Assembly: GCA_002030015.1 (NCBI GenBank)
Contig: LQBH01000013.1
Coordinates: forward strand, 145,218-209,217
Direction of reading: 5' to 3'
From: a delta proteobacterium MLS_D
GTDB taxonomy: Bacteria; Desulfobacterota; Syntrophia; Syntrophales; UBA2210
Length of the DNA stretch: 64,000 nucleotides
The first letter of the stretch is position 1. The number at the start of each line of letters is the position of its first letter. This document shows, one piece after another, positions 9,821-39,730 of the stretch. Under the pieces are notes generated by a model. The model made no database searches. It was not told the origin of the DNA and saw only the letters and a list, made by a program, of their open reading frames with translations. The translations under genes were made by a program, and so were the position numbers.

Positions 9821-11722
9821 TTAAGTGGGGTTATTGAAATGCGGGTCCCCGGGAATGGCAGTGAAAAATTGTGTCAGAGACAGGAAAACGGAGGCCGCCT
9901 TTTCCGTGTCGGGGCCGTCGCCGATGATGGTAAGAAAACGTTCGTCAGTGGGTGGTTGCGGAAAAATGGAGATCTGGTGTCGTCCGCCGACGTACTGGAA
10001 CAACGCCGGTTCGGGTAGATCAGAAAAATCCAGTATACCCTTTACACGAAACACGGAAGGCGGAAGTTTCTCCACGGCTCGCAGAAATTTTTCCCGGTCC
10101 ACGGGGGTGGTCAGGCGGATGCTCTTGGCCGAAAGGCCGTCGCGCAGGTGAGAAGGATGCAGAAACACGGCTTTTTCAGTATCTCCGGCTAATTTCGGAG
10201 AAAGATCGGCTCCCATAAGAAGCGCGGGGTTCAGGATGCCGTCAACGGCGGGTATCAACGGTGCGGTCGGGTTTATATCACGCAGCGTCTGTTCTATCGA
10301 GGCCAGGCGGTCAGAAGGAACCAGGTCTTTTTTATTAATCATGACAATATCCGCCCCCCGTATCTGCTCCACGGCGATGGACTGTTCACGGAGTGACCCC
10401 TCGATGTTTTCTGCGTCGACAACCGTCAGCACGCAGTCGAACCGGGCGATATCATCCATTTCTTTTATTTCGTCCTGCAGGTTGAAAGGATTGGCGAGGC
10501 CGGACGTTTCCAGGATGATGACATCTGGAGAATATTCATCGAGTATTTCACGCACCGTCCGCTTCAGGCTGCCAGACAGCGTGCAGCACACGCAACCTTC
10601 GTCGATCTCCGTCACGGTGTAATCGAGTAATTTACCGTCAAGACCGATTTCGCCGAGCTCGTTTTGAATCACCGCAACGAAGCGGCTCCGTTGAGTCTGG
10701 TAATCGATGAAATGTTGTAAAAAACTGGTTTTTCCTGATCCCAGGAATCCGGTTAAAATAATCAGGGGCGGCCGCTGGTCAATCCCTGTTATTACCGTGC
10801 CCGCGCTTGCCCCGGATTCGCCGAGCCGGTGCGAACCCCACCAGAGCTTTCCGGCGCAGGACGGCGGGGCATTTTCCGAATCACTCGCCGAAACGGCAAA
10901 CAGGCAATCCGAGCCTTCCGGTGCGATTGTCGAACTCAGTCGGTCGAAATCCGCCTCGCCGTAGCCGGTCATAACGAGACCATTCCAGAGATCGGGCGCC
11001 GGCTCGGAAGAAATTTCTCCGGATGACGAGTAGGTCTGTTGGAATCCCGTATATCTTTTCTCGATGGCGTGGTCGGGCGCCCGGTCGAGATTAAGGGTGA
11101 TCGAAGCGGTCAGTACATCGAAAAACCCGAGTGCCGTGTCAAAGGCGGGAAAATCCCGGTCAACTTCACCGGGCGACAGAAGCTGGACGGGGATTCCGTT
11201 TTTCACAAAAGTCACGCCATCTTTCGCCACGGTGCGCTGCGATGATTCACTCAGCATGGCGATGGCCAGCGCGGAATGATCTTTTCGAACGAAAAGGAAA
11301 AATGTACCGATTCCAAAAAGCGGCATCAGATCGGAATGCTTGAGAAATTCACGGATACGGTCCTGGTAGTCATCCTGCTGCGTTACCGCGGCGACTTGAA
11401 GGGAGAAACGTTCAACAAGTGACTCCTGCTCGTTTGGAAAGTAGCAGAGACCGAAACGACAGGTTATCCACTCCTGAACTGGCTCGCTGTCCAGAAAAAA
11501 AAGGCCGAACACCCCCTCGTTCCCGGCGATTCTCGCCGTCCAGCCCTCGGCGGCGGCGGAAACCTGGTGTTTCATCCCCCGCCATCCGACGGCGCGCCGT
11601 GTCGCCATCTGAAACTGAGTGCGGTACAGGATCGCCCTCAGCAACACCCGAAGAGCGATATCAGGGGACTCTTCCTCTTCGCTTGTGATAAAATGGTCAA
11701 GCGATCCGAGAATCGACGGCAT
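9821..11722 (-). CDS. Fusion protein: N-terminal unknown domain (~310 aa, paralog of ORF 30431..31414) + COG0523/CobW-type metallochaperone GTPase
   Basis: The C-terminal half carries Walker A GFLGSGKTSF, the COG0523 metal motif GCVCC, NKKD and a CobW_C-like tail. The N-terminal half shares LSPGEVDRDFPAFD and a YFPN block with the free-standing copy-B protein. Its ATG overlaps the upstream stop (TGATG). Confidence 0.8.
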   Translation of the reverse strand: MPSILGSLDHFITSEEEESPDIALRVLLRAILYRTQFQMATRRAVGWRGMKHQVSAAAEGWTARIAGNEGVFGLFFLDSEPVQEWITCRFGLCYFPNEQESLVERFSLQVAAVTQQDDYQDRIREFLKHSDLMPLFGIGTFFLFVRKDHSALAIAMLSESSQRTVAKDGVTFVKNGIPVQLLSPGEVDRDFPAFDTALGFFDVLTASITLNLDRAPDHAIEKRYTGFQQTYSSSGEISSEPAPDLWNGLVMTGYGEADFDRLSSTIAPEGSDCLFAVSASDSENAPPSCAGKLWWGSHRLGESGASAGTVITGIDQRPPLIILTGFLGSGKTSFLQHFIDYQTQRSRFVAVIQNELGEIGLDGKLLDYTVTEIDEGCVCCTLSGSLKRTVREILDEYSPDVIILETSGLANPFNLQDEIKEMDDIARFDCVLTVVDAENIEGSLREQSIAVEQIRGADIVMINKKDLVPSDRLASIEQTLRDINPTAPLIPAVDGILNPALLMGADLSPKLAGDTEKAVFLHPSHLRDGLSAKSIRLTTPVDREKFLRAVEKLPPSVFRVKGILDFSDLPEPALFQYVGGRHQISIFPQPPTDERFLTIIGDGPDTEKAASVFLSLTQFFTAIPGDPHFNNPT

Positions 11723-12581: not shown

Positions 12582-13757
12582 TTACACGTCGATTCCAAAA
12601 CCTATCCTGTCGCCGTTTCCCAGGTAGACATCCTCCTTGGAGCGGTAGCGTGCCGTGCCTTTCACGATAGGATACCCAGCCGCCGCGAACTTCTTGGCAC
12701 ATACTATGCCCGTGCAGTGATTGCAGCCGATCTTTTTGAAGTCGTACTTGCCGAGAGAGAGCACCAGGTCGTCGTACTTGGGATCCCAATCTTCAAAGGG
12801 AGATACGTGCAGGCCGCCGTATACGCCGTACAGTTCGTCGTTCTCGTACTTAATTTCCTGGTATGCCGTTTCAGCGAACTGAATAATGCTCTGATGACAG
12901 CACCCCGTCACGCTGACCAACCCGCGGTCTTTTATATTGAAATACATGGACTGTTCGCCATAGACGCGGCATATGATCGGAATAGCGAAAACATAGGTGG
13001 CGAAACCCGGAACGATCGGCTTCAGTCCCGGTTTGACTTTGATCACTTCGCCCGTATGCCCTGAATCCTTCAGGTACTGCAGTCCCTCGGGATAAAACGT
13101 GTCGGGTATGTAGACGGGTATGTTCGGGTCGTACTTGAAGGTGACAGGAATGCCCCAGTAATGGTCAAAATGTTCGTGAGATATGAACAGGGCCTCGATT
13201 TCCCTGTTTTTCAGCATTTCGTCGATGCCCTCGCGCTTGAAGCATTCGTGGGTCCACTTGTAGCTCCAGCCGCTATCGAGGAGATACTTGTGTTGTTTTC
13301 CGTTCATTTCTTCCATTTCGATCAGGCAGGCGTAGCCACCGGCGTTCTCGGGATGAACCGAAAGCTTCTCGGTGATATCCCAGGCTTCGTCGACGTCGTT
13401 CGGCAACAGATGCTTGATCTTGGCGATGCCCTTTTCGTAACTGCCTTTGCCGAGGCCTGTCCCGTCACCGAAAGGCGGCCAGTTGTATAAATACTGGTCT
13501 ACCAATAATCCTCCGGCCCCTTTGATGTCGTTCATCAGATCGGCGTTGTTGAACCAGCTCGTTTCTGAAATATTTGTTATTTTGACATATTTACACGCCC
13601 CGATGTCGGCCATCTTACGCTTGACGGGGGAGAACTGAGCCTTGCGCCACGGCGAGTAGGAATATACTCCCATCGCAAGAACGGATCCCCCGAGCGCGCC
13701 CATGGCCGCGCCCTTGAAGAATTCCCTGCGGTTGATCGTGCTTTTGTTTTCAGACAT
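12582..13757 (-). CDS. Tat-signal metallo-beta-lactamase-fold protein (COG1237-like), copy A
   Basis: The start was trimmed to ATG 13757 (RBS AAAGGAGGAG), which removes the overlap with the upstream gene. The Tat motif is NRREFFKGAAMGALGG. The MBL motif is ISHEHFDHYWG. VTGCCH, YGGLHVSPFEDWDPK and CNHCTG are shared with copy B. Confidence 0.8.
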   Translation of the reverse strand: MSENKSTINRREFFKGAAMGALGGSVLAMGVYSYSPWRKAQFSPVKRKMADIGACKYVKITNISETSWFNNADLMNDIKGAGGLLVDQYLYNWPPFGDGTGLGKGSYEKGIAKIKHLLPNDVDEAWDITEKLSVHPENAGGYACLIEMEEMNGKQHKYLLDSGWSYKWTHECFKREGIDEMLKNREIEALFISHEHFDHYWGIPVTFKYDPNIPVYIPDTFYPEGLQYLKDSGHTGEVIKVKPGLKPIVPGFATYVFAIPIICRVYGEQSMYFNIKDRGLVSVTGCCHQSIIQFAETAYQEIKYENDELYGVYGGLHVSPFEDWDPKYDDLVLSLGKYDFKKIGCNHCTGIVCAKKFAAAGYPIVKGTARYRSKEDVYLGNGDRIGFGIDV

Positions 13758-13777
13758 GGCTCCTCCTTTATCACCAT

Positions 13778-15190
13778 TTAATGGATGATTGTAATTGATT
13801 CGTAGGCCCAGGGGAGCACCGCCAGGATGATAAAATAGATCACCACTCCGCAAACGGCGCCGACTCCCAGTCCCCACCCCAAGGTGGGATTCCACCGGAC
13901 TTCCGCCAGCCGTGCCTCTTCCTCAGCGTGATCGGCGGCGATTTCATCGGCGGTTTTCGGTACCATTTTCCAGCCCGGCCAGTTATCCATGAACCAGTGA
14001 TGCGCAAGCCAGATATTGATGAGCCAGATGGTCGGTATCATGGGAAACTGCTGAGGATGGGAAAATCCTTTCTGGGTACCGAGGAAATAATGTGATGTCG
14101 CGTAGTAGAAATAATAAAGCAGAATCGCCGCAACGGCCGTTATAAGGGTCCGGACGAGTACGTTGGTCGGCAGGCTGAACCGCTTGGGCCAGTTGCCGCA
14201 GTAGAACGTAATGAACAGAGCCGGAACGAGGAAAAAGACTGCCATCTCGCCGACATGCAGCCACCGCCAATCGGGCGCGAAATCCCGTCGTGTACCGCGG
14301 ATCGCCTGTCCCCAGGTCAGTTCCTGTGCGAAATACAGGAAAAAGTGAAGGGCCCAAGCGATGGCGATGATGCCGAAGAAGGCCGTTACCCGGCGCAGCC
14401 AGGTAGTTTTTATCAGTTTGAAGGGGAAACGTTCCCAAATAGTTTCCACAATCCACACCGTCACCGTGGCGCACATGATCCAGGAAACGTGGAAATTACC
14501 CGAAACAGTGTCGGCGAAACGCTCCCAGTAAGGCGGGGCGATGGATGTGAAATACTGCCAGGGATAGTAAAGAATGCCCATGTGAGAGTGCATTGTCATG
14601 AAGTATATCATCGTGCTCAGGAAGAATGTCATGACCAGTATGCTGATTCCCTTGGCCGGCTGACTCATATTCTGCCAGGGCGCTTCCTCGCAGGCTACAA
14701 CCCAGGCTGGACTCAGCCATGATGCGATTGCCGCGAACATCAGGCAGGCAAGGGCCGCATATTCGATGGCGAAAAATTCAGTAACGCCAGGCAACTCTAA
14801 TAAACGACCCGGATTAAAATAGGCCAGGCCTAAATTGCCAAGCAGACCCTCGAAAAATCCTTTAATGAGTATAACCAGGATACCCACCGAAATCGCGGTG
14901 AGTATTGCCCCTTTGTATAACGGATGACTGTTTTCCAACCAACTTCTTTTAAAGGGCCAGTAATTGAAAATGTACACCATCCAGATCAGCATAATCAGCC
15001 ACCACCTGGTGTACATGTACCCCACGTACGGAGTGTACATCCGCATCCACCCCCGGGAGTCCTGGAAAATCCACCACGTGACGTAAAACACCGCCAGCGT
15101 GAGAACCAGGGCCACGATTGCCGGCATGGGCTGGGGCCAGCGCTTGACCAGTTTCCGTTCTTCCAGGTATCCTACGCCATAACGCTCCAT
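13778..15190 (-). CDS. Polytopic membrane protein (~11-12 TM), Trp/Tyr-rich, unknown family, copy A
   Basis: 470 aa. It is a paralog of 29163..30407. Shared blocks are WWIF, YTP, NYWPFKRSWLENSHPLYKGA versus DYWPFSRSYLQNTHPLAKGA, and DNWPGWK versus DRWPGYR. Confidence 0.75.
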   Translation of the reverse strand: MERYGVGYLEERKLVKRWPQPMPAIVALVLTLAVFYVTWWIFQDSRGWMRMYTPYVGYMYTRWWLIMLIWMVYIFNYWPFKRSWLENSHPLYKGAILTAISVGILVILIKGFFEGLLGNLGLAYFNPGRLLELPGVTEFFAIEYAALACLMFAAIASWLSPAWVVACEEAPWQNMSQPAKGISILVMTFFLSTMIYFMTMHSHMGILYYPWQYFTSIAPPYWERFADTVSGNFHVSWIMCATVTVWIVETIWERFPFKLIKTTWLRRVTAFFGIIAIAWALHFFLYFAQELTWGQAIRGTRRDFAPDWRWLHVGEMAVFFLVPALFITFYCGNWPKRFSLPTNVLVRTLITAVAAILLYYFYYATSHYFLGTQKGFSHPQQFPMIPTIWLINIWLAHHWFMDNWPGWKMVPKTADEIAADHAEEEARLAEVRWNPTLGWGLGVGAVCGVVIYFIILAVLPWAYESITIIH

Positions 15191-29162: not shown

Positions 29163-30407
29163 ATGAGCAACAATCAATCGCTTGAGAACTGGCTTACAAC
29201 GAGACAGTTGGAGCCTCGATGGTCTGTCGGTCTGTCAGGGGTTGCAAACCTGATCGTCCTTCTCATCGGCGTCTTTGCCGTATGGTGGATCTTTTTCTCC
29301 AATGGCGGGATATTCAAACTGTATACGCCTCTCCTGGGCTTCTCGCTGGTCATATGGACGCTGCTCATACTGCTCTGGCAGACGGAACTGTTTGACTACT
29401 GGCCGTTCTCACGCTCCTACCTGCAGAATACCCATCCGCTCGCCAAGGGCGCGACGATGTCACTCCTCATGCTTGTCATCTACCTCGTCCTTATCATCGG
29501 GTGTGTCTACCTGATCATGGGCAAACTCGGCATCACCTATTTCAACTGGAACAGTCTCATGACCTATGGAGATTTCGGCCAGGACGCCACATCCACACGG
29601 GAAGCCGCGTCATGGGCGATGCTGTGCCTCTCTGTTCCGTTCTTCCTCGTGAGTGTCTGGTTCATGTTCGGGATCGGAAAGGATCTCTTTCCTGAATTGA
29701 AACAGCCAAAGTTCGGGATCGCCATGTGGTCGATTATCGCGGTCCTGGGTATCTACTTCTATTTCATTTTCTTCCATCCCCACATTGGATCCATGTTCTA
29801 TCCGAAACAGATCTATGCCGCGGTGCCTCCCTGGTGGGAAAGCATAGCGCAGACCAACAGCGCCGAATACAGTCTTGGCATCCTGTTCGTCACCGTCGTC
29901 GGCATTTTCTATGCTTTCCATCTCTGGGACGGCTGGCCATATAACTACGTTCAGAAACAGCCGTGGCGCTTTATTTATTTCGCCGTTGTCAGTCTTGTCA
30001 TCGGCTATATTATCTTCCGCGTTCAGTTGTTCATTTTCGACTATATCTGGTATGAAGCCTATGTCGGCGGTCAGAATGAAGCCAACTTCGGTTGGCGGTA
30101 TAGCCATACCGTCACGATGGCGAATTTTGTCCTTGTCATCGCTCTGATTCAAAACGTCTTCTTCGGACAGGCATACGAAAAGATGAACGCTGTCGTGCGA
30201 GGCCTTATCAAGACCATCGTCGCTGTTGTCGTTGGCCTGCTTTTCGCGTGGGCCTACTATGCCTGGGGACCGGCGCTTCTCGGGATATGTGGGGGTATTT
30301 CCCATCCGTCGGAGAATGCCGCCGCCTTCCTGATTATGGTTATTAACCTGATCATGATTCAGGATTACTTTATGGATCGATGGCCCGGGTATCGGCTCAA
30401 AAAATAA
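29163..30407 (+). CDS. Polytopic membrane protein (~10 TM), Trp/Tyr-rich, unknown family, copy B
   Basis: 414 aa. It is a paralog of 13778..15190 (see the shared blocks listed there). Confidence 0.8.
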   Translation: MSNNQSLENWLTTRQLEPRWSVGLSGVANLIVLLIGVFAVWWIFFSNGGIFKLYTPLLGFSLVIWTLLILLWQTELFDYWPFSRSYLQNTHPLAKGATMSLLMLVIYLVLIIGCVYLIMGKLGITYFNWNSLMTYGDFGQDATSTREAASWAMLCLSVPFFLVSVWFMFGIGKDLFPELKQPKFGIAMWSIIAVLGIYFYFIFFHPHIGSMFYPKQIYAAVPPWWESIAQTNSAEYSLGILFVTVVGIFYAFHLWDGWPYNYVQKQPWRFIYFAVVSLVIGYIIFRVQLFIFDYIWYEAYVGGQNEANFGWRYSHTVTMANFVLVIALIQNVFFGQAYEKMNAVVRGLIKTIVAVVVGLLFAWAYYAWGPALLGICGGISHPSENAAAFLIMVINLIMIQDYFMDRWPGYRLKK

Positions 30408-30430: not shown

Positions 30431-31414
30431 ATGACCGTGACCAGGCATATTGATCCTCTTGTTTCTTTCGAGATGCTTCTGCTCGAGCTGTTTCAAGGGG
30501 TATTTCAGAACGATGCGGCGCGGCGGCAATTCGGTTTTTCCCAGATATCGCAGGTGACAACCTCTGACGGTCTGCTTTCATGGTATTTGTGGTTTTCTGA
30601 AAAGCCCGGCGCCTACTCTCTTACTGTTACCGAGGGGCAGGTGGTGTCTGAGTCAGACAATGTGTCCGGTAACCAGCAAGATACGGATATCTTGGAGGGC
30701 CGTCTTGCTATACGGTATTTCCCTGATATGGAAGATGAGATGTTTGATTCCCTTTCCTGTTATGAGCAGATATTTCGGATGGGACCTTCCTTCGATGCTA
30801 ATGGTACGCCCTCTTTTGAAGGGGGGCGTACCATGCATGACGGTTTTTTTGTCGCCGGGTATATGAATATTCTCATCCATTCTTCGAAAGCCGATGTGGA
30901 TTTTTTCTGCTCTGCACCGGACAGATGGCGGGATTACCGCCTCGACGGCCTCACATTGACCAATGATAAGGGAGAGTCCCGCCGGGTCCTCTCTCCCGGT
31001 GCCGTTGACCGGGACTTCCCCGGCTGGGATATCTCGTTCTTTATCTTAGATAAAATTATTTCATCGTTCTGTTTTGTGTTCGGTCAGGCGCCCCGGTGCG
31101 TGGGAGCCGCCTCCAGGCCGTTTGTTCACTACGAGATCGATTCGAAACAAACGGTCCGTACTGTGAAGGACCCGGATATAACCGAGTGCGCCTTTGGCGT
31201 CTCATTTTCCAACCACGCTGGAGAAAATCTTTTGAAAAAAAGATATGGCTCTTTTGCTGAACGGTTTGATTCACCGGATTACTCCGTGATCGGCATGTGG
31301 AAAGATCCTGACGGTATCCCCGCGCGGTGGAAGAGGCCGGAGTGGTGGACGATCAGGACCACACATTTTCATGCCGACCCCGATTACGTCTGCTCCTGCT
31401 ACGCGGACGTCTAA
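30431..31414 (+). CDS. Unknown-domain protein, free-standing paralog of the N-terminal half of the COG0523 fusion
   Basis: 327 aa. LSPGAVDRDFPGWD versus LSPGEVDRDFPAFD, and RLAIRYFPDMEDEMFDSL versus RFGLCYFPNEQESLVERF. I recognise no known motif. Confidence 0.7.
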   Translation: MTVTRHIDPLVSFEMLLLELFQGVFQNDAARRQFGFSQISQVTTSDGLLSWYLWFSEKPGAYSLTVTEGQVVSESDNVSGNQQDTDILEGRLAIRYFPDMEDEMFDSLSCYEQIFRMGPSFDANGTPSFEGGRTMHDGFFVAGYMNILIHSSKADVDFFCSAPDRWRDYRLDGLTLTNDKGESRRVLSPGAVDRDFPGWDISFFILDKIISSFCFVFGQAPRCVGAASRPFVHYEIDSKQTVRTVKDPDITECAFGVSFSNHAGENLLKKRYGSFAERFDSPDYSVIGMWKDPDGIPARWKRPEWWTIRTTHFHADPDYVCSCYADV

Positions 31415-33530: not shown

Positions 33531-33823
33531 CGCTTTCCCCCTCCGGGAGGGGGTGGTTCAGACGGTCATCGGCTGCCTCCGGAATTTCATCCCTCCGCTC
33601 AGATCGGCTGTTGAAGCTGCTGCATGTTGTTTCAACAGGTGGACCGGCAATCACCCACCAGGCGCGTGGTCCGGCTGAAGACTGGTAAACAGGACCATTG
33701 CGGTGTACAATCAAAAATAACGTTAAAAGGGCACACTAAGGCAACAGGCATCGTGCCGCTGCACGGGTGCGGACTGACGTCCGTTTCTGCGTCTCCGGCT
33801 TTCATAAAAAAGTTGGGTCGCGT

Positions 33824-35950
33824 ATGAATATTTATTCTCTCCCGGCGATCATCTCTTTTACGGTCAATTTCAGCACCGCTTTCATCGTCCTGATGGAAAA
33901 TCCGCGGGCAACCTTGCACCGGTGGTTTGCGGCTTTCATCTTCAGTTTCGCCGTCTGGAACCTGGCCGAAATTCTCATGTTAAACAGCGCCGACCTGTTA
34001 CCAGCCATGCTGGGTGCGCAGATTCTTTACAGGGTTATTTTTCTCACTCCGGCATTCTACGTGATTATTTCCTATCTCTTCCCCAAGAACTTGGGCACGT
34101 TTGCGACGAGGCCCATCTTTTATGTGGCCGTTTTCTCGCTGCCGGTTCTGGGCCTGTGCCTGTCTTTTCCTGACTTTCAGATAGAACTGGTTTCCCTGAA
34201 AGAGGCACTCAATATTTACCATTATCATCTTACGTTCAACCTCAATCCTGTTTTCTTATTTCTCCTGCTTGTTTCACTGAGTTACATCGTGTGGGGAAGC
34301 GTTGTTCTTGTTATGAAGATCAAGCACTTGCGCACTATCCGTCTCAAAAACCAGACCCGTTTTTTCGTGTCGGGGATGGTATTCATCTTTGTCGGGTTTA
34401 TAGCGATCATTCTGCTGAAGGCCAGCCTGCGGAATCCGGCGTCCTTTTATTGGCTTTCAACCATTTTCACTTTTATTGTCGCTCTTTTTTTCCTCATAAC
34501 CATCATGAAGTTTCACCTGTTCAAGCCCGGGAAGATGCTCAGCGGGGGAATGACCTATACCATTCTTTCCGCCGCGACCCTCAGCGTCTACTTTTTTGTT
34601 GTCAGGGCCGCCAGTACCGGCCTGGAGTCGTGGATCGGAATTGACTCGTACATGCTCAACGCCGCCCTGATTGTTGCCTTGATCTTCGCCATTGTGCCGT
34701 TCGAAAAGCGTCTCAGGAGATTATTCGATCGGCTGCTCAACAGGGATTTACATCAGCAGCGTGGTAATATCCTCGCCTTGTTTCGTGAGTTACAGGGATA
34801 TCACGAAAGGTCGGCGTTCTTCGAGATTATCGAACGGTTTTTGGTCGATAATCTGAAGAGTTCGGCGGTTTTTATCTTTGATTATCGTCCGGAAGTTAAT
34901 CAATTTGTTGAAAGCCACGCTGACGGTACGATACCGCCTGTCCCGGAAAGCTCTTCTCTCGTGAGAGAACTAAAAAGGAAGAAGGGCGTAGCAGAGTTCT
35001 ATGAAATCACCCATACAGAAGAGAGTCATGAATATCACAAATTTCTGGAAGATGTGCACGCGAGATTTCTTGTGCCCCTCACGTACGCAGGCAACCTTAT
35101 GGCCATCGTGGTCCTGTGCCGCAAGAAGTACGGTCTCGAATATAATGAAAACGAAAAGGAAATCTTGTCTATCCTGGGTAGTGAAGTAGCAGCCTCGCTG
35201 CGCAGGAACCAGATGATCGAAGAAATGCGCGTGAAGGATCGGCAGCGGTTCCAGGTGGAAAAACTCGCCTCTGTCGGTCAGCTCGCCGCCAGCCTCGCCC
35301 ACGAAATCCGTAATCCACTTAACACCATTTCCACGTCGGCGCAGACACTGCTGCAAAAAAGTATTACCGAAATCGACAGGAAAAACCTCATGCGGTTTAT
35401 CATTGAAGAGGCAGGCCGCCTGAACCGTATACTGGAAGATTTTCTGAGCCTTGCACGAATCGGGATGGGGACCCTTGTCCCCATAGACATGGAGGGCATG
35501 TTCGACAGGCTCTGCCTTGAACTGAAGAATCTGGACGATCTGGATATACCTGTCTCGTACGAAATTACGACACGCCACGGGGGACTTGTCAGCGATCCCG
35601 ATTTGCTGTTCCAGGCGCTCCTGAATCTGGGAATTAACGCGCGAGCCGCGATACGGGAACGCTGCAGCAATGACGAGGACTTTACCTGCACGGATGGAAT
35701 GATTCAGTGCGTGGTGAGCGCGGATACGCATCATTTTATAGTTTCAGTTACCGACAACGGTATCGGAATTTCTCCTGATGCCAGGAAATTATTATATGAT
35801 CCATTTTTTACGACAAGGGAGAAAGGTACCGGGCTGGGGTTGTCCATTGTTCACCAGATTGTCGCGGTCCTGTCCGGGAGTATCGAGTTCGCGTCGCGGC
35901 CCGGTCATACACGTTTCTCCATTTTACTGCCCAGGAAAACAGCGGAATAA
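33824..35950 (+). CDS. Sensor histidine kinase with N-terminal 7-TM domain
   Basis: About 7 TM at the N-terminus, a central GAF-like region, the HisKA H-box (LAASLAHEIRNPLN), and HATPase N/G boxes (NLGINARAA, DNGIGI, GTGLGLSIV). The start was trimmed to ATG 33824. Confidence 0.85.
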   Translation: MNIYSLPAIISFTVNFSTAFIVLMENPRATLHRWFAAFIFSFAVWNLAEILMLNSADLLPAMLGAQILYRVIFLTPAFYVIISYLFPKNLGTFATRPIFYVAVFSLPVLGLCLSFPDFQIELVSLKEALNIYHYHLTFNLNPVFLFLLLVSLSYIVWGSVVLVMKIKHLRTIRLKNQTRFFVSGMVFIFVGFIAIILLKASLRNPASFYWLSTIFTFIVALFFLITIMKFHLFKPGKMLSGGMTYTILSAATLSVYFFVVRAASTGLESWIGIDSYMLNAALIVALIFAIVPFEKRLRRLFDRLLNRDLHQQRGNILALFRELQGYHERSAFFEIIERFLVDNLKSSAVFIFDYRPEVNQFVESHADGTIPPVPESSSLVRELKRKKGVAEFYEITHTEESHEYHKFLEDVHARFLVPLTYAGNLMAIVVLCRKKYGLEYNENEKEILSILGSEVAASLRRNQMIEEMRVKDRQRFQVEKLASVGQLAASLAHEIRNPLNTISTSAQTLLQKSITEIDRKNLMRFIIEEAGRLNRILEDFLSLARIGMGTLVPIDMEGMFDRLCLELKNLDDLDIPVSYEITTRHGGLVSDPDLLFQALLNLGINARAAIRERCSNDEDFTCTDGMIQCVVSADTHHFIVSVTDNGIGISPDARKLLYDPFFTTREKGTGLGLSIVHQIVAVLSGSIEFASRPGHTRFSILLPRKTAE

Positions 35951-35966
35951 AGCGGGAAGGATTGCC

Positions 35967-37364
35967 ATGGAACAGGCTGAACGGACCATTTTAATCGTCG
36001 ATGATGAAGAAAAGATCCTGAAGGTTCTGGAGATAAACCTGAAGGAGAAGTACCGCCTTCTGCTGGCGCGAAACGGTGACGAAGCCATAAACTGCCTCAG
36101 GAATGCCGCCGTCGATCTGATGCTGACCGATGAGCGTATGCCCGGGCGGAATGGCATGGATCTGCTCAGCTTCGTGCAACAGCATTACAGGCATGTCCCC
36201 GTGATTATCGTGACAGCCTTCGGTTCGGTGGAGCATGCCGTGCATGCCATGAAGATGGGAGCGTACGACTACATTTTGAAGCCGATAAAGATAGACGAGT
36301 TACAGCGGCTTATCGAAAAAGCCCTCCATTATTCCCGCCTTCTCAGTGAAAATGTCGAGTTGAAAGAACGACTCAAGAAATATGAAGGGGTCAAAGAAAT
36401 TATCACCGCGAATCCCGGGATGAGGGCCCTGTTCGAGACCCTGAAGCAGGTCGCTGCGACATCCGCAAGCGTGCTGATAGAAGGAGAATCGGGGACGGGG
36501 AAGCAGCTGGTGGCCTCATCAATCCACTATATGAGTTCCCGGGCCGATAATCCTTTTATTGAGATTAACTGCGGCGCTATCCCGGTGAACCTGCTGGAAA
36601 GTGAATTGTTCGGTCATGAGAAGGGAGCTTTCACGGGAGCGGTGCATATGAAGAAGGGCAAGTTCGAACTCGCGGACAACGGCACCCTCTTTCTGGACGA
36701 GATTGGTGAATTGCCGCTGGAGCTGCAGGTCAAGCTGCTGCATGTACTGGAGAACCAGACGTTCACCAGGCTGGGCGGCACCCAGCTTATCAGGACGCAT
36801 GCCCGCATCGTAACAGCGACAAATCGAATATTGAGCGAGGAAGTCGAGGCGAAGCGATTCCGCAGCGACCTGTATTATCGTCTCAAGGTTGTGTATGTGC
36901 GCATACCTCCCCTGCGGGAACGCAGAGAGGATATTCCTCTTCTGGTGCGCCATTTCATGGAAAAATATAATCAATTACGTGATGACAGAAAGACAGAAGT
37001 TGAACTATCCGGCGAGGCGCTCGATATCCTGCAATCATACAGCTGGCCGGGGAATGTTCGCGAGCTGGAAAACGTTATTCAGCAGGTTATCATTTTCGCG
37101 AAGGGTGGCCTTGTTACGCCGGATGCGCTTCCGCCCGAGATCGTACAGGATACGGAGCCGTCCATGACGAAAGAAGAACTCCGGGAAGAAAAGAACAGGC
37201 GAACAAAGGCGATTCTGCGTGATGCCGAGCATAGCTTTTTGAAACGAATCCTTGAAAAAACCCGGGGGAACATAACCCGGGCGGCCGAGATAAGCGGCTA
37301 TGATCGCAGGCAACTTCAAAACCTGATCAAAAAACATGGTATTAAAACGGACTATTTCAAGTAG
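35967..37364 (+). CDS. NtrC-family sigma54-dependent response regulator
   Basis: REC domain (ILIVDDEE...DLMLTDERMPG). AAA+ domain (GESGTGKQLVASSIH, GAFTGA, LFLDEIGE, WPGNVRELEN). HTH (AAEISGYDRRQLQNLIKK). The start was trimmed to ATG 35967, 14 nt after the kinase stop. Confidence 0.9.
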   Translation: MEQAERTILIVDDEEKILKVLEINLKEKYRLLLARNGDEAINCLRNAAVDLMLTDERMPGRNGMDLLSFVQQHYRHVPVIIVTAFGSVEHAVHAMKMGAYDYILKPIKIDELQRLIEKALHYSRLLSENVELKERLKKYEGVKEIITANPGMRALFETLKQVAATSASVLIEGESGTGKQLVASSIHYMSSRADNPFIEINCGAIPVNLLESELFGHEKGAFTGAVHMKKGKFELADNGTLFLDEIGELPLELQVKLLHVLENQTFTRLGGTQLIRTHARIVTATNRILSEEVEAKRFRSDLYYRLKVVYVRIPPLRERREDIPLLVRHFMEKYNQLRDDRKTEVELSGEALDILQSYSWPGNVRELENVIQQVIIFAKGGLVTPDALPPEIVQDTEPSMTKEELREEKNRRTKAILRDAEHSFLKRILEKTRGNITRAAEISGYDRRQLQNLIKKHGIKTDYFK

Positions 37365-37535: not shown

Positions 37536-37551
37536 TGGCATGGATTTTGAT
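37536..37551 (+). promoter_or_regulatory. Weak candidate sigma54-like promoter (atypical -12 TTGA)
   Basis: TGGCATGGATTTTGAT lies about 60 nt upstream of ATG 37613, downstream of the kinase/NtrC pair. It has the same TGGCATG-N4-TTGA form as 26083..26098. Confidence 0.25.
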
Positions 37552-37612: not shown

Positions 37613-37948
37613 ATGTCGAAGATGTGGCAAGCATGGACGGTTGGCATTTTGGGAGTATGGCTTTTTATAGCCGCATTCCTGTCCTTTTCATCAATGGGGA
37701 ATTTGTGGAATGATTTAATTGTTGGCGTTATCGTCGGCATTGCGGGGTTTACGATGATCAAAGAAAAGAGCTGGCAGGGCTGGACGGCCGGTATTCTGGG
37801 AATCTGGTTGATCATCGCGGCCTTTATCCCCTCGTTGCAGGCCCACGCCGGGAATATGTGGAACTGCATCATCGTGGGCGTATTGCTGATGGTCGCAGGG
37901 TTTGGCGCCTTTGAAGGACAAGGGCGTCAGATTCCCCACACCGCGTAA
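37613..37948 (+). CDS. Small 4-TM membrane protein with internal duplication (SPW-repeat-like)
   Basis: WQAWTVGILGVWLFIAAF and WQGWTAGILGIWLIIAAF are two clear internal repeats. An AAAGGAGG RBS is present. Confidence 0.5.
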   Translation: MSKMWQAWTVGILGVWLFIAAFLSFSSMGNLWNDLIVGVIVGIAGFTMIKEKSWQGWTAGILGIWLIIAAFIPSLQAHAGNMWNCIIVGVLLMVAGFGAFEGQGRQIPHTA

Positions 37949-38003: not shown

Positions 38004-38386
38004 GCGTATGGCAGGCCTGACTTTCTGCCAGCAGATCGCCTATCTGAAAAATAGCTTCGAATTCCGGGCCATCTTTTTTTACCAGCGGGTATGTATCCCT
38101 CCGTGGTAATATGGTTTTGTGATTGAATCAATTCCCTGAAGTCGATGATTGACCGTATTGAAGAATCATGCGAAGTTATGAACTGTCTGTTACGGGTTCT
38201 CCTGGCAATCTTCGTATGGTCGGTAGTGGCAAAGAGTTAAATAACCTGAGAACAGGTGAGAGTTTCTGGATTCCGGATCAAGCTTCGCTTGTCCGGAATG
38301 ACGGGAAATAAGGTTTTTCAGGGGGCAAGTCTTTCGGAAAATGACTTGAAGCGAAAAACCCGCACGCCGACAAAGGAGGAGCTAAC

Positions 38387-38788
38387 ATGAAACTGAGTCC
38401 CGGATCTTCCGCACCGGAGTTCAACACAAGCGACAGTAATGATGTCGGCATACGTCTTTCCGGATTGATCACAGACGGACCGGTGGTGCTTGTTTTTCTC
38501 AGGGGATTCACCTGACCTTTTGCACGAAAACATCTGGGTCGGATGAAATCAGCTATCGCGTCGTTCGAGGAAAGGAAAGCTCACATTGTTGTCGTTGCGC
38601 CGCATGGGAAGTCTCGAGTAAGGGCCTACTGGGAAAAAGAAAATCTCCCCTTTATCGGCATTCCCGATCCCGACGGAACGTTGGGAAAGCTCTACGGACA
38701 GGAATGGAACCTGGTCAAGCCGGGGAATCTGGGGGACGTACTTCAACTTATCAATACATTCAAATGCATGAGCTTTTGTACAGAGTGA
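38387..38788 (+). CDS. Peroxiredoxin-like (AhpC/TSA, thioredoxin-fold) protein with in-frame TGA at the redox-Cys position: candidate selenoprotein (or nonsense pseudogene)
   Basis: AAAGGAGGA RBS + ATG 38387. The product reads MKLSPGSSAPEFNTSDSNDVGIRLSGLITDGPVVLVFLRGFT-[TGA 38513..38515]-PFARKHLGRMKSAIASFEERKAHIVVVAPH.... This continues in frame into ORF 38543..38788. The TGA aligns with the first Cys of the RG.WCP.C block of Prx-like proteins. Confidence 0.55.
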
Positions 38789-38983
38789 GTTCGTTCATAA
38801 AAAATGATGTGCGCTATCGTTCGACAACACCTGCCAGTCAGTAGACGGCACGATTTGTGGTATCGCAGATTAACAAAGGAAATGGTTGGCGTATCTGCGG
38901 CTAAGCGGCGGGCGGACAGGCGAGCTTGATCGCGTCGGCGACCGTCCCGCGCAGCCGCTTGATGGCCAGGCAAGAATTAAATG

Positions 38984-39730
38984 CTATGTACTCTGAATTC
39001 CACGCTCCATCGCTTCCTGCGGGGTTACTCCTGCGTCGATGTATGCCTGCCACATGTTATTGCCGTACTCGCGCATCGTCTCGAGATCAACGATGGGCTG
39101 CGTGATCCGTTTCATGGTCTCGTCCGACACCGTGAAGGTTTGTACAAGCTCCGCGCCGGCCTGTTTGACCGCGTCACAAATATCGGCGCGGACCTGTTCA
39201 AATCCCGGCTGGGTCATCGTCTCGGCGGCAGGCCGGTAGATTTCCCCTATGAGTGCTTTGCCGTAAATGTATCGCAGGTGTGAAGACATCAGGTCGAATA
39301 TGGAGGGCTCGGGAAAACCGGCAACGGAAAGGGAGACAATGAGCGGATGACGCCCGCGAAGTGGGTGTGCGGCCTTGCCTTTGTTCTCGATGATAAACGG
39401 TTCAACAGCGGGGAGTGTTCGTTCGATAAACGTCTTGAGCTGCGCGTTGACGCCGAAATGATAGAGCGGCGTGGCATAGACCGCAAGGTCGGATTCCAGG
39501 AATTTCGGGAACAGTTCTCTGCTCATGTCGTCCTTATGGACACAGATCCCCGGTGTCTTTGTCCAGCATGTGTAGCAGCCGATACAGTACCTGATCTTGC
39601 GGGAACGGAGGTTGATAACCTCCACATCGGCATGTGCCGAACGCATACCCTCGACAAGCGAATTGAGCAGGAGCTCCGTTTTGCTCTGACCCTTCCCCCG
39701 CGGACTTGCATTGAGCGCAATTACTTTCAT
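38984..39730 (-). CDS. Flavodoxin-like NAD(P)H-dependent FMN reductase / iron-sulfur flavoprotein (Isf)-like
   Basis: MKVIALNASPRGKGQSKT N-terminus. Compact Cys motif CIGCYTCWTKTPGIC. Confidence 0.75.
   Translation of the reverse strand: MKVIALNASPRGKGQSKTELLLNSLVEGMRSAHADVEVINLRSRKIRYCIGCYTCWTKTPGICVHKDDMSRELFPKFLESDLAVYATPLYHFGVNAQLKTFIERTLPAVEPFIIENKGKAAHPLRGRHPLIVSLSVAGFPEPSIFDLMSSHLRYIYGKALIGEIYRPAAETMTQPGFEQVRADICDAVKQAGAELVQTFTVSDETMKRITQPIVDLETMREYGNNMWQAYIDAGVTPQEAMERGIQST

Follow-up and report, generated by a model that had tools for sequence, protein, structure and literature searches.

In a 64,000-nucleotide stretch of contig LQBH01000013.1 (assembly GCA_002030015.1, from a delta proteobacterium MLS_D of the Syntrophales), hereafter referred to as the window, positions 38387–38788 of the forward strand carry what appears to be a selenocysteine (Sec)-containing, peroxiredoxin (Prx)-like redoxin gene that has lost its 3' end, and with a probability of roughly 70% we consider this copy to be a recent pseudogene. 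An earlier note, made from the sequence alone, had described the segment as a candidate selenoprotein gene with an in-frame TGA at the catalytic Cys position and had named a decaying gene, suggested by a short and divergent C-terminus, as the alternative. Comparison with relatives supports the position of the Sec codon throughout the family, but the copy is not intact, as its homology ends at 38725, node 339 of 462 in a DNA profile of the family. The alternative is thus the better reading and the odd C-terminus the decisive feature, with the correction that the gene was truncated abruptly rather than decaying gradually.

In intact relatives, which are about 150 amino acids (aa) long, the UGA at codon 43 would be decoded as Sec by means of a small in-gene hairpin, situated about 21–25 nt downstream of the UGA and presumed to be a SelB-binding Sec insertion sequence (SECIS). 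The Sec residue would then lie where helix 1 begins, in the place of the nucleophilic Cys of CxxC oxidoreductases. The window copy has kept the ribosome-binding site (RBS), the start, the Sec codon, the hairpin and the first 113 codons, with the ancestral sequence gone from 38726. Its product would be a 42-aa peptide if the UGA terminates translation, or a 133-aa Sec protein unable to complete the thioredoxin fold, which makes the locus most likely a recent pseudogene; the truncated copy has presumably lost its function. The elements of the locus are as follows.

38372–38380, + strand: Shine-Dalgarno sequence AAAGGAGGA, 6–7 nt upstream of the ATG, read directly from the sequence.
38387–38512, + strand: ATG and 42 N-terminal codons (MKLSPGSSAPEF...VVLVFLRGFT), from translation; homologous to the N-termini of intact members.
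38513–38515, + strand: in-frame TGA, the ancestral Sec codon and first position of the U-P-F-A motif, from the alignment of homologues.
38516–38725, + strand: conserved coding part after the Sec codon (PFARKHLGRMK...GKLYGQEWNLVKPG), from the match of DNA profile nodes 1–339 of 462 to 38387–38725.
38531–38545, + strand: SECIS-like hairpin CAUCUG-GGU-CGGAUG, 6 bp including one U.G pair, from comparison with relatives.
38726–38788, + strand: non-homologous tail (NLGDVLQLINTFKCMSFCTE) with the stop codon TGA at 38786–38788; no match to profile nodes 340–462.
38811–38830, − strand: terminator-like hairpin with a T-run, 23 nt past the stop of the truncated gene, from a consensus scan.

The ATG at 38387–38389 opens a frame that continues to the TGA at 38786–38788 and is broken by the TGA at 38513–38515 alone, as had been proposed from the RBS and the frame shared with an 81-aa open reading frame (ORF). 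That ORF, at 38543–38788, is not the only one listed for the segment: the ORF list splits the gene into a 42-aa ORF (38387–38515) and the 81-aa ORF, for which gene callers take the Met at 38543, inside the part that follows the Sec codon, as the start. No RBS-like sequence precedes the 81-aa ORF, whose start falls within helix 1 of the fold. With Cys substituted for the internal stop, the 133-aa read-through product matches two Pfam families with scores that exceed the gathering thresholds, AhpC-TSA at E 8.7e-13 and Redoxin at E 2.4e-8, in agreement with the suggested thioredoxin-fold, Prx-like N-terminus. These matches cover only profile positions 2–101 of 124, and tblastn and nhmmer searches likewise found the N-terminal three quarters of the thioredoxin-fold domain in the window gene and the remainder absent. 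No sigma-70 site was found upstream of the truncated gene in a consensus scan; hits to the sigma-54 pattern were at or below the number expected by chance, with none immediately before the gene. The terminator-like hairpin at 38811–38830 probably belongs to the convergent flavodoxin-like gene at 38984–39730, and it is recorded for its position only, since the number of such hits in the scan is at chance level.

To compare the codon across the family, we used 80 related DNA loci from species-representative genomes, among which at least 589 matches exist, and 50 from metagenomes. The species-representative matches come mostly from metagenome-assembled genomes (MAGs) labelled Deltaproteobacteria, Desulfobacterales, Syntrophales, Anaerolineae or Chloroflexi, and the named hosts include Desulfobulbus alkaliphilus and Leptolinea sp. 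HRD-7. In all 127 loci in which the motif could be located, TGA stands at the aligned position, and the protein sequence is conserved on both sides of it. Judging from these alignments, the in-frame TGA is the ancestral Sec codon of a widespread and already known thioredoxin-fold redox family, not a mutation, and Sec would be inserted at the corresponding UGA. When the read-through product was used for a protein search, about nine in ten of the 100 homologues listed were ORFs of ~101 aa that begin at the Met after the TGA (MKxDI...) and align with just the second half of the query; these database entries are therefore mis-called, and the failure of ORF calling to recognize the codon, which had been suspected for the window gene, is general in the family. 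Five "full-length" database proteins (P0002, P0003, P0041, P0042 and P0046) have Trp at the Sec position. In the one that was checked, P0002, the codon is TGA in the DNA (L139:501–962), which means that the gene caller read TGA as Trp on an ordinary bacterial contig. In P0081, a more remote homologue of the Cys type, C-P-I-C takes the place of U-P-F-A. The TGA does correspond to the first Cys of a CxxC-type redox motif.

The relatives comprise two subfamilies. Subfamily 1, which includes the window gene and is labelled Deltaproteobacteria, Syntrophales or Desulfobacterales, has the motif RGFxU-PFA-RKHLGQMK, while subfamily 2, mostly from Chloroflexota, has RGFxU-PFC-QRHMAQLRQD, with U-P-F/Y/H-C at the Sec residue. 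The U-P-F-A motif, which lacks the second (resolving) Cys of UxxC, is found in the window gene and in 38 of the 42 unique subfamily-1 proteins; 37 of these 42, all full-length, have no Cys at all, and 56 of the 59 unique subfamily-2 proteins have exactly one. In an alignment of the family with solved peroxiredoxins, the Thr of the Prx T-x-x-C motif is matched by Sec, and the peroxidatic Cys by the second motif position, which is Cys or Ala. The position of the peroxidatic Cys of Mycobacterium tuberculosis AhpE is Ala in the window gene. The term "catalytic Cys" used in the earlier note therefore holds in the sense of a thiol:disulfide oxidoreductase but not in that of a peroxidatic residue. 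The family's invariant R114 (of GRMPA), which aligns near the region of the Prx catalytic Arg, is Asn in the window gene. The placement of Sec on the Thr of T-x-x-C points to the chemistry of a CxxC-type or single-Sec oxidoreductase rather than that of a Cys-peroxidatic Prx, and because of its U-P-F-A motif and usual lack of Cys, the clade of the window gene would carry out its redox reactions with one Sec and no resolving thiol. A "UxxA" variant was not found under a name of its own in the selenoprotein literature searched.

The evidence for truncation lies in the 3' part of the gene. Intact homologues end with ...GQEWNLIKLGRMPALFIIDxKGxIxFxQYAxxMADIPENxxL..., and the window reads ...GQEWNLVKPGNLGDVLQLINTFKCMSFCTE*. 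An nhmmer DNA profile built from 46 unique subfamily-1 genes (462 nodes) aligns through nodes 1–339 to 38387–38725 with an E-value of 1.3e-85, and nodes 340–462 have no match in 38201–39200. In tblastn, an intact homologue aligned by residues 1–115 only, at 38387–38731 (70% identity, E 3e-54). The lost ~40 residues, searched with this homologue and two C-terminal peptides, are unmatched anywhere in the 64 kb; the best C-terminal match (E 0.035) falls within an unrelated kinase gene. Local DNA alignments of 38719–38900 with the 3' ends of 18 homologues did not score above shuffled sequences (z −1.3 to 2.0), and frameshift rescue was rejected, as neither of the other two frames contains family motifs after 38700. 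An alignment of 80 unique members has 36 columns with at least 95% conservation; the window gene violates 13 of these, compared with 0–5 in leave-one-out controls. Only one of the violations (D56A) falls in residues 1–113, and the other twelve come after residue 113, where the lost columns include the Arg of GRMPA, the D of FIID, the Y and M-D-I-P-N.

Residues 1–113 depart from the subfamily consensus in 4 of 58 columns (0–15 in intact members), and with the 5' part this close to consensus the truncation looks recent. In an AlphaFold (AF2) model of an intact homologue (predicted local distance difference test score, pLDDT, 69), the lost part contains the strands 117–121 and 126–132 and the helix 143–152, which together make up the beta-beta-alpha unit at the C-terminal end of the thioredoxin fold. 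The loss amounts to ~41 codons, or about 27% of the gene, in place of which the window has twenty unrelated codons and a stop. Such a sharp boundary of homology argues for a deletion or rearrangement rather than slow decay. At 38765–38779, the tail brings two Cys residues (C-M-S-F-C) into a protein whose relatives are Cys-free, probably by chance.

The window hairpin at 38531–38545 starts 15 nt after the UGA and has a stem of 6 bp (CAUCUG/CGGAUG, with one U.G pair), a loop of 3 nt (GGU) and a free energy of −4.8 kcal/mol. It had been noticed before and drawn with a 4-bp stem; the hairpin is present, and the 6-bp stem with a 3-nt loop fits better. Published criteria for bacterial SECIS (bSECIS) elements call for an apical loop of 3–9 nt, an upper stem of 4–16 bp, a G in the first two loop positions, a distance of 16–37 nt from the UGA to the loop, and a minimum free energy of −7.5 kcal/mol or lower (PMC13188914). 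The loop, the stem and the GGU of the window hairpin lie within these limits, as does its UGA-to-loop spacing of 21 nt, and the energy of the hairpin alone lies outside them. Rfam gave no SECIS match in 38300–38900 at E-values up to 10, and across the whole window at gathering scores it gave two tRNAs only and no SECIS family. The region after the UGA, taken alone, shows no gain in folding stability over shuffled sequence (z +0.8 and +1.7), nor does a 68-nt fold that contains the hairpin (−11.8 kcal/mol), and the significance of the hairpin therefore has to be drawn from comparison with relatives.

The 21-nt segment of the window hairpin is identical in five intact homologues (L003, L087, L088, L091 and L127). 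In subfamily 1 the hairpin takes the form CAUCUG-GGN-C(A/G)GAUG at +19 and can be formed by all 44 unique sequences, with energies from −3.2 to −9.4 kcal/mol. The codons of its stem are uniform (His CAT 21/21, Leu CTG 17/21, Gln CAG 13/13, Lys AAA 16/16), the Gly of the loop uses all four codons, and the third position of the loop is free. Where the inner G-C pair is lost through a CUC codon for Leu, an outer G-C pair appears. RNAalifold, applied to 38 subfamily-1 sequences, recovered a 5-pair core only, with U-A/U-G variation and no compensatory changes. The hairpin of subfamily 2, UGGCGC-AGUU-GCGCCA, starts 22 nt after the U of the UGA, and its codons +8 to +10 are invariant (Ala GCG 58/58, Gln CAG 60/60, Leu TTG 60/60). 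The Arg codon at +11 uses two codons, CGC in 45 of 60 genes, with an entropy of 0.81 bits; that of other four- and sixfold degenerate codons in subfamily-2 genes is about 1.2–2.3 bits. These patterns point to an RNA-level constraint on the hairpin that appears strong in subfamily 2 and is suggestive in subfamily 1, the latter being rated lower because its conservation comes without covariation.

Several observations weigh against the pseudogene, and some of them would favor a functional variant, that is, an intact selenoprotein of 133 aa in which the tail (VLQLIN-TFK-CMSFC) replaces the two lost strands. The first 113 codons contain no disabling mutation and the encoded residues are conserved as well as in intact members, and the RBS, the start and Sec codons and the hairpin are all preserved, so that selection on a shortened protein is possible. 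The tail matches a beta-hairpin in its length and in the arrangement of hydrophobic residues, shows a faint strand-turn-strand pattern resembling ALFIID-QKG-AIAFAQY, and has a score against an all-family C-terminal hidden Markov model (HMM) that is marginal (p about 0.03; 57 of 2000 shuffles reach it). The truncated allele recurs in several assemblies, but with 100% identity over 6.2 kb it carries no evolutionary information, and the identity of the other contigs leaves no polymorphisms for testing selection. No relative above 74% identity was found in the metagenome collection, and among the homologue loci examined none is syntenic and shows the ancestral state. The hairpin, moreover, is weak and lacks compensatory covariation, and the host genome would have to encode the Sec machinery. 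We nevertheless regard a functional variant as unlikely: the twelve nearly invariant columns and the C-terminal helix are missing, the tail pattern NTFKCMSF occurs in no other contig of the metagenome collection, and an abrupt end of DNA homology is expected from deletion or rearrangement, not from adaptive divergence. Against the subfamily-1 HMM the tail reaches a p of only about 0.17, and it was not accepted as a diverged homologous end. A bolder form of the same idea, in which the clade is an undescribed single-Sec, Cys-free U-P-F-A branch with a minimal 6-bp SECIS and the window copy a remodelled, translated selenoprotein of 133 aa, with the tail Cys residues perhaps serving as the resolving thiol, seems to us quite improbable.

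It is also very unlikely that the internal TGA is an ordinary stop in an organism that does not decode Sec, leaving the 42-aa peptide, the 81-aa ORF, both or nothing as the product. TGA does act as a normal stop elsewhere in the window, where it ends 8 of the 29 Pfam-supported ORFs, and the window contains neither a tRNA-Sec, selA, selB or selD gene nor, by a six-frame TGA read-through scan and Pfam scans of 37 ORFs, another selenoprotein gene; in the 8.7 kb upstream, likewise, neither Sec machinery genes nor a further read-through candidate turned up. This absence has little weight, since 64 kb is about 2% of the genome, and the lack of an Rfam SECIS match, which would also fit an ordinary stop, is set against the family-wide TGA, the coding conservation on its two sides and the constrained hairpin, which together mark the codon as certainly an ancestral Sec codon. 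The lack of an RBS-like sequence before the 81-aa ORF and its start inside helix 1 also speak against an ordinary stop. Ribosomal protein S1 of the organism has as its closest named relatives those of a Deltaproteobacteria MAG (97%) and of Syntrophales MAGs (83% and 76%), and 19 selenoproteins, including a Prx-like thiol:disulfide oxidoreductase, are listed for the related Syntrophus aciditrophicus (PMC1794560), a deltaproteobacterial syntroph available in culture; taxonomy in this way hints at Sec decoding. Finally, the odd 3' end might come from a chimeric join or another assembly or sequencing artefact, the real gene being intact. Metagenome contigs can be chimeric, and the break lies in a convergent intergenic region. 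However, the same 81-aa product is encoded on 7 contigs of up to 218 kb from JGI, NCBI and Logan assemblies, and two JGI contigs of different projects are identical to the window over the 6.2 kb that span the break, so that we give an artefact hardly any credence.

Predicted bacterial selenoproteins named in reviews include the Prx-like thiol:disulfide oxidoreductase (PF00578; UxxC or UxxU) and the Redoxin family protein (PF08534; UxxC), which have been predicted in Geobacter, Syntrophus aciditrophicus and Desulfotalea and as the Prx-like 1 and 3 groups of the Global Ocean Sampling (GOS) set (PMC1794560, PMC2398784, PMC13188914). The window family fits these known Prx-like and redoxin selenoproteins, to which it was matched by description rather than by reference sequences (e.g., WP_010940744.1). 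They share the thioredoxin fold with matches to AhpC-TSA/Redoxin, Sec as the first residue of a CxxC-type motif where helix 1 begins, hosts among the deltaproteobacteria, an in-ORF hairpin just after the UGA that is the presumed SECIS, and routine mis-annotation as short ORFs. The clade of the window gene differs from the UxxC proteins in having U-P-F-A without the resolving Cys, and the window copy, in addition, lacks the last quarter of the domain.

The best NCBIfam match of the window product and of intact relatives is NF040769, "SelL-related redox protein", of which the window product covers profile positions 2–99 of 173. The window product scores 51.5 bits and intact relatives reach 66 and 89 bits, all under the curated cut-off of 120, and NF040769 is thus a related family of which the window gene is not a member. 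The closest solved structures are peroxiredoxins of the PrxQ/BCP and AhpE types (PDB 3drn and 5c04/1xxu; E 4e-7 to 8e-11), which share with the family their fold and, ahead of the FxxD strand, a basic residue. They differ from it in the placement of Sec described above, the peroxidatic position being Cys in subfamily 2 and Ala in subfamily 1. Like the E. coli fdhF-type and consensus bSECIS elements, the hairpin lies within the ORF immediately 3' of the UGA, its first loop nucleotide is G followed by G or U, and its loop distance and 6-bp upper stem correspond to the consensus. It is much smaller and weaker than the fdhF-type SECIS and lacks a conserved lower stem, and its binding by SelB is presumed.

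Other degenerate copies occur in the family. In MAG MFD04716.bin.2.216, a copy (L008:3127–3174) has an extra in-frame TGA four codons after Sec (PFA*IHLG, from AGA to UGA); this paralogue of an intact gene in the same MAG (L007) is probably another pseudogene. L104 and L120 have broken C-termini, out of frame or with an early stop, which in L120 comes right after KLGR. The 5' half is gone from L131, L132 and L135, in which the 3' half lies behind stop-rich sequence, and L133 and L134 are scrambled fragments. Some of these metagenome copies (L104, L120 and L131–L135) may reflect sequencing errors in short contigs. Given several degenerate members, a broken copy at the window locus is not unusual.

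In the window, the truncated gene follows genes for a seven-transmembrane (7TM) histidine kinase with a sigma-54 response regulator and for an SPW-repeat membrane protein, and past it lie the convergent flavodoxin-like gene and beta-oxidation genes. These neighbours recur at none of about 130 homologue loci, and genes related to the flavodoxin-like one (79–95% identity) are found in other contexts or on contigs that end short of the junction. This gene (38984–39730, − strand; Flavodoxin_2/FMN_red) encodes 248 aa, the same length as in its closest relatives, and most of its homologues have 354–363 aa with an added C-terminal SCP2 domain (PF02036). A joint deletion of the ends of both genes was considered and rejected, as no SCP2 remnant lies between them.

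Some further features of the window were recorded. A sigma-54 −24/−12-like site, TGGCATGGATTTTGAT, lies at 37536–37551 (+ strand), 60 nt before the SPW-repeat gene (37613–37948) and just after the gene for the sigma-54 activator (35778–37364); hits to the pattern across the window are below chance expectation. The longest ORF of this response regulator (35778–37364, + strand; 528 aa) begins before the histidine-kinase ORF (33767–35950) has ended, and the gene as called in L001 (425–1822) uses an internal start and encodes 465 aa. Pfam gave no match at E-values up to 0.001 for three long ORFs, at 13778–15190 (− strand), 29163–30407 (+ strand) and 30431–31414 (+ strand), which encode 470, 414 and 327 aa, respectively, and the adjacent ORF 12582–13895 has only a weak metallo-beta-lactamase match. 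In a CobW/HypB/UreG-type GTPase of 633 aa (9821–11722, − strand), the CobW domain begins at residue 319, and the N-terminal 318 residues have no Pfam match.

The finding is an ordinary one, a broken copy of an already known selenoprotein family. The 42-aa and 81-aa ORFs belong to a single truncated selenoprotein gene, for which the proper annotation is that of a Sec-type pseudogene rather than of a new selenoprotein. The family itself is badly represented in databases, where most of the closest entries are half-proteins and a few carry a spurious Trp. The frequency of gene fragments in the family is in line with the published picture of frequent selenoprotein loss. The Cys-free UxxA clade, together with its very small conserved hairpin, would provide useful test cases for models of the bacterial SECIS, which is a property of the family and not of this locus.

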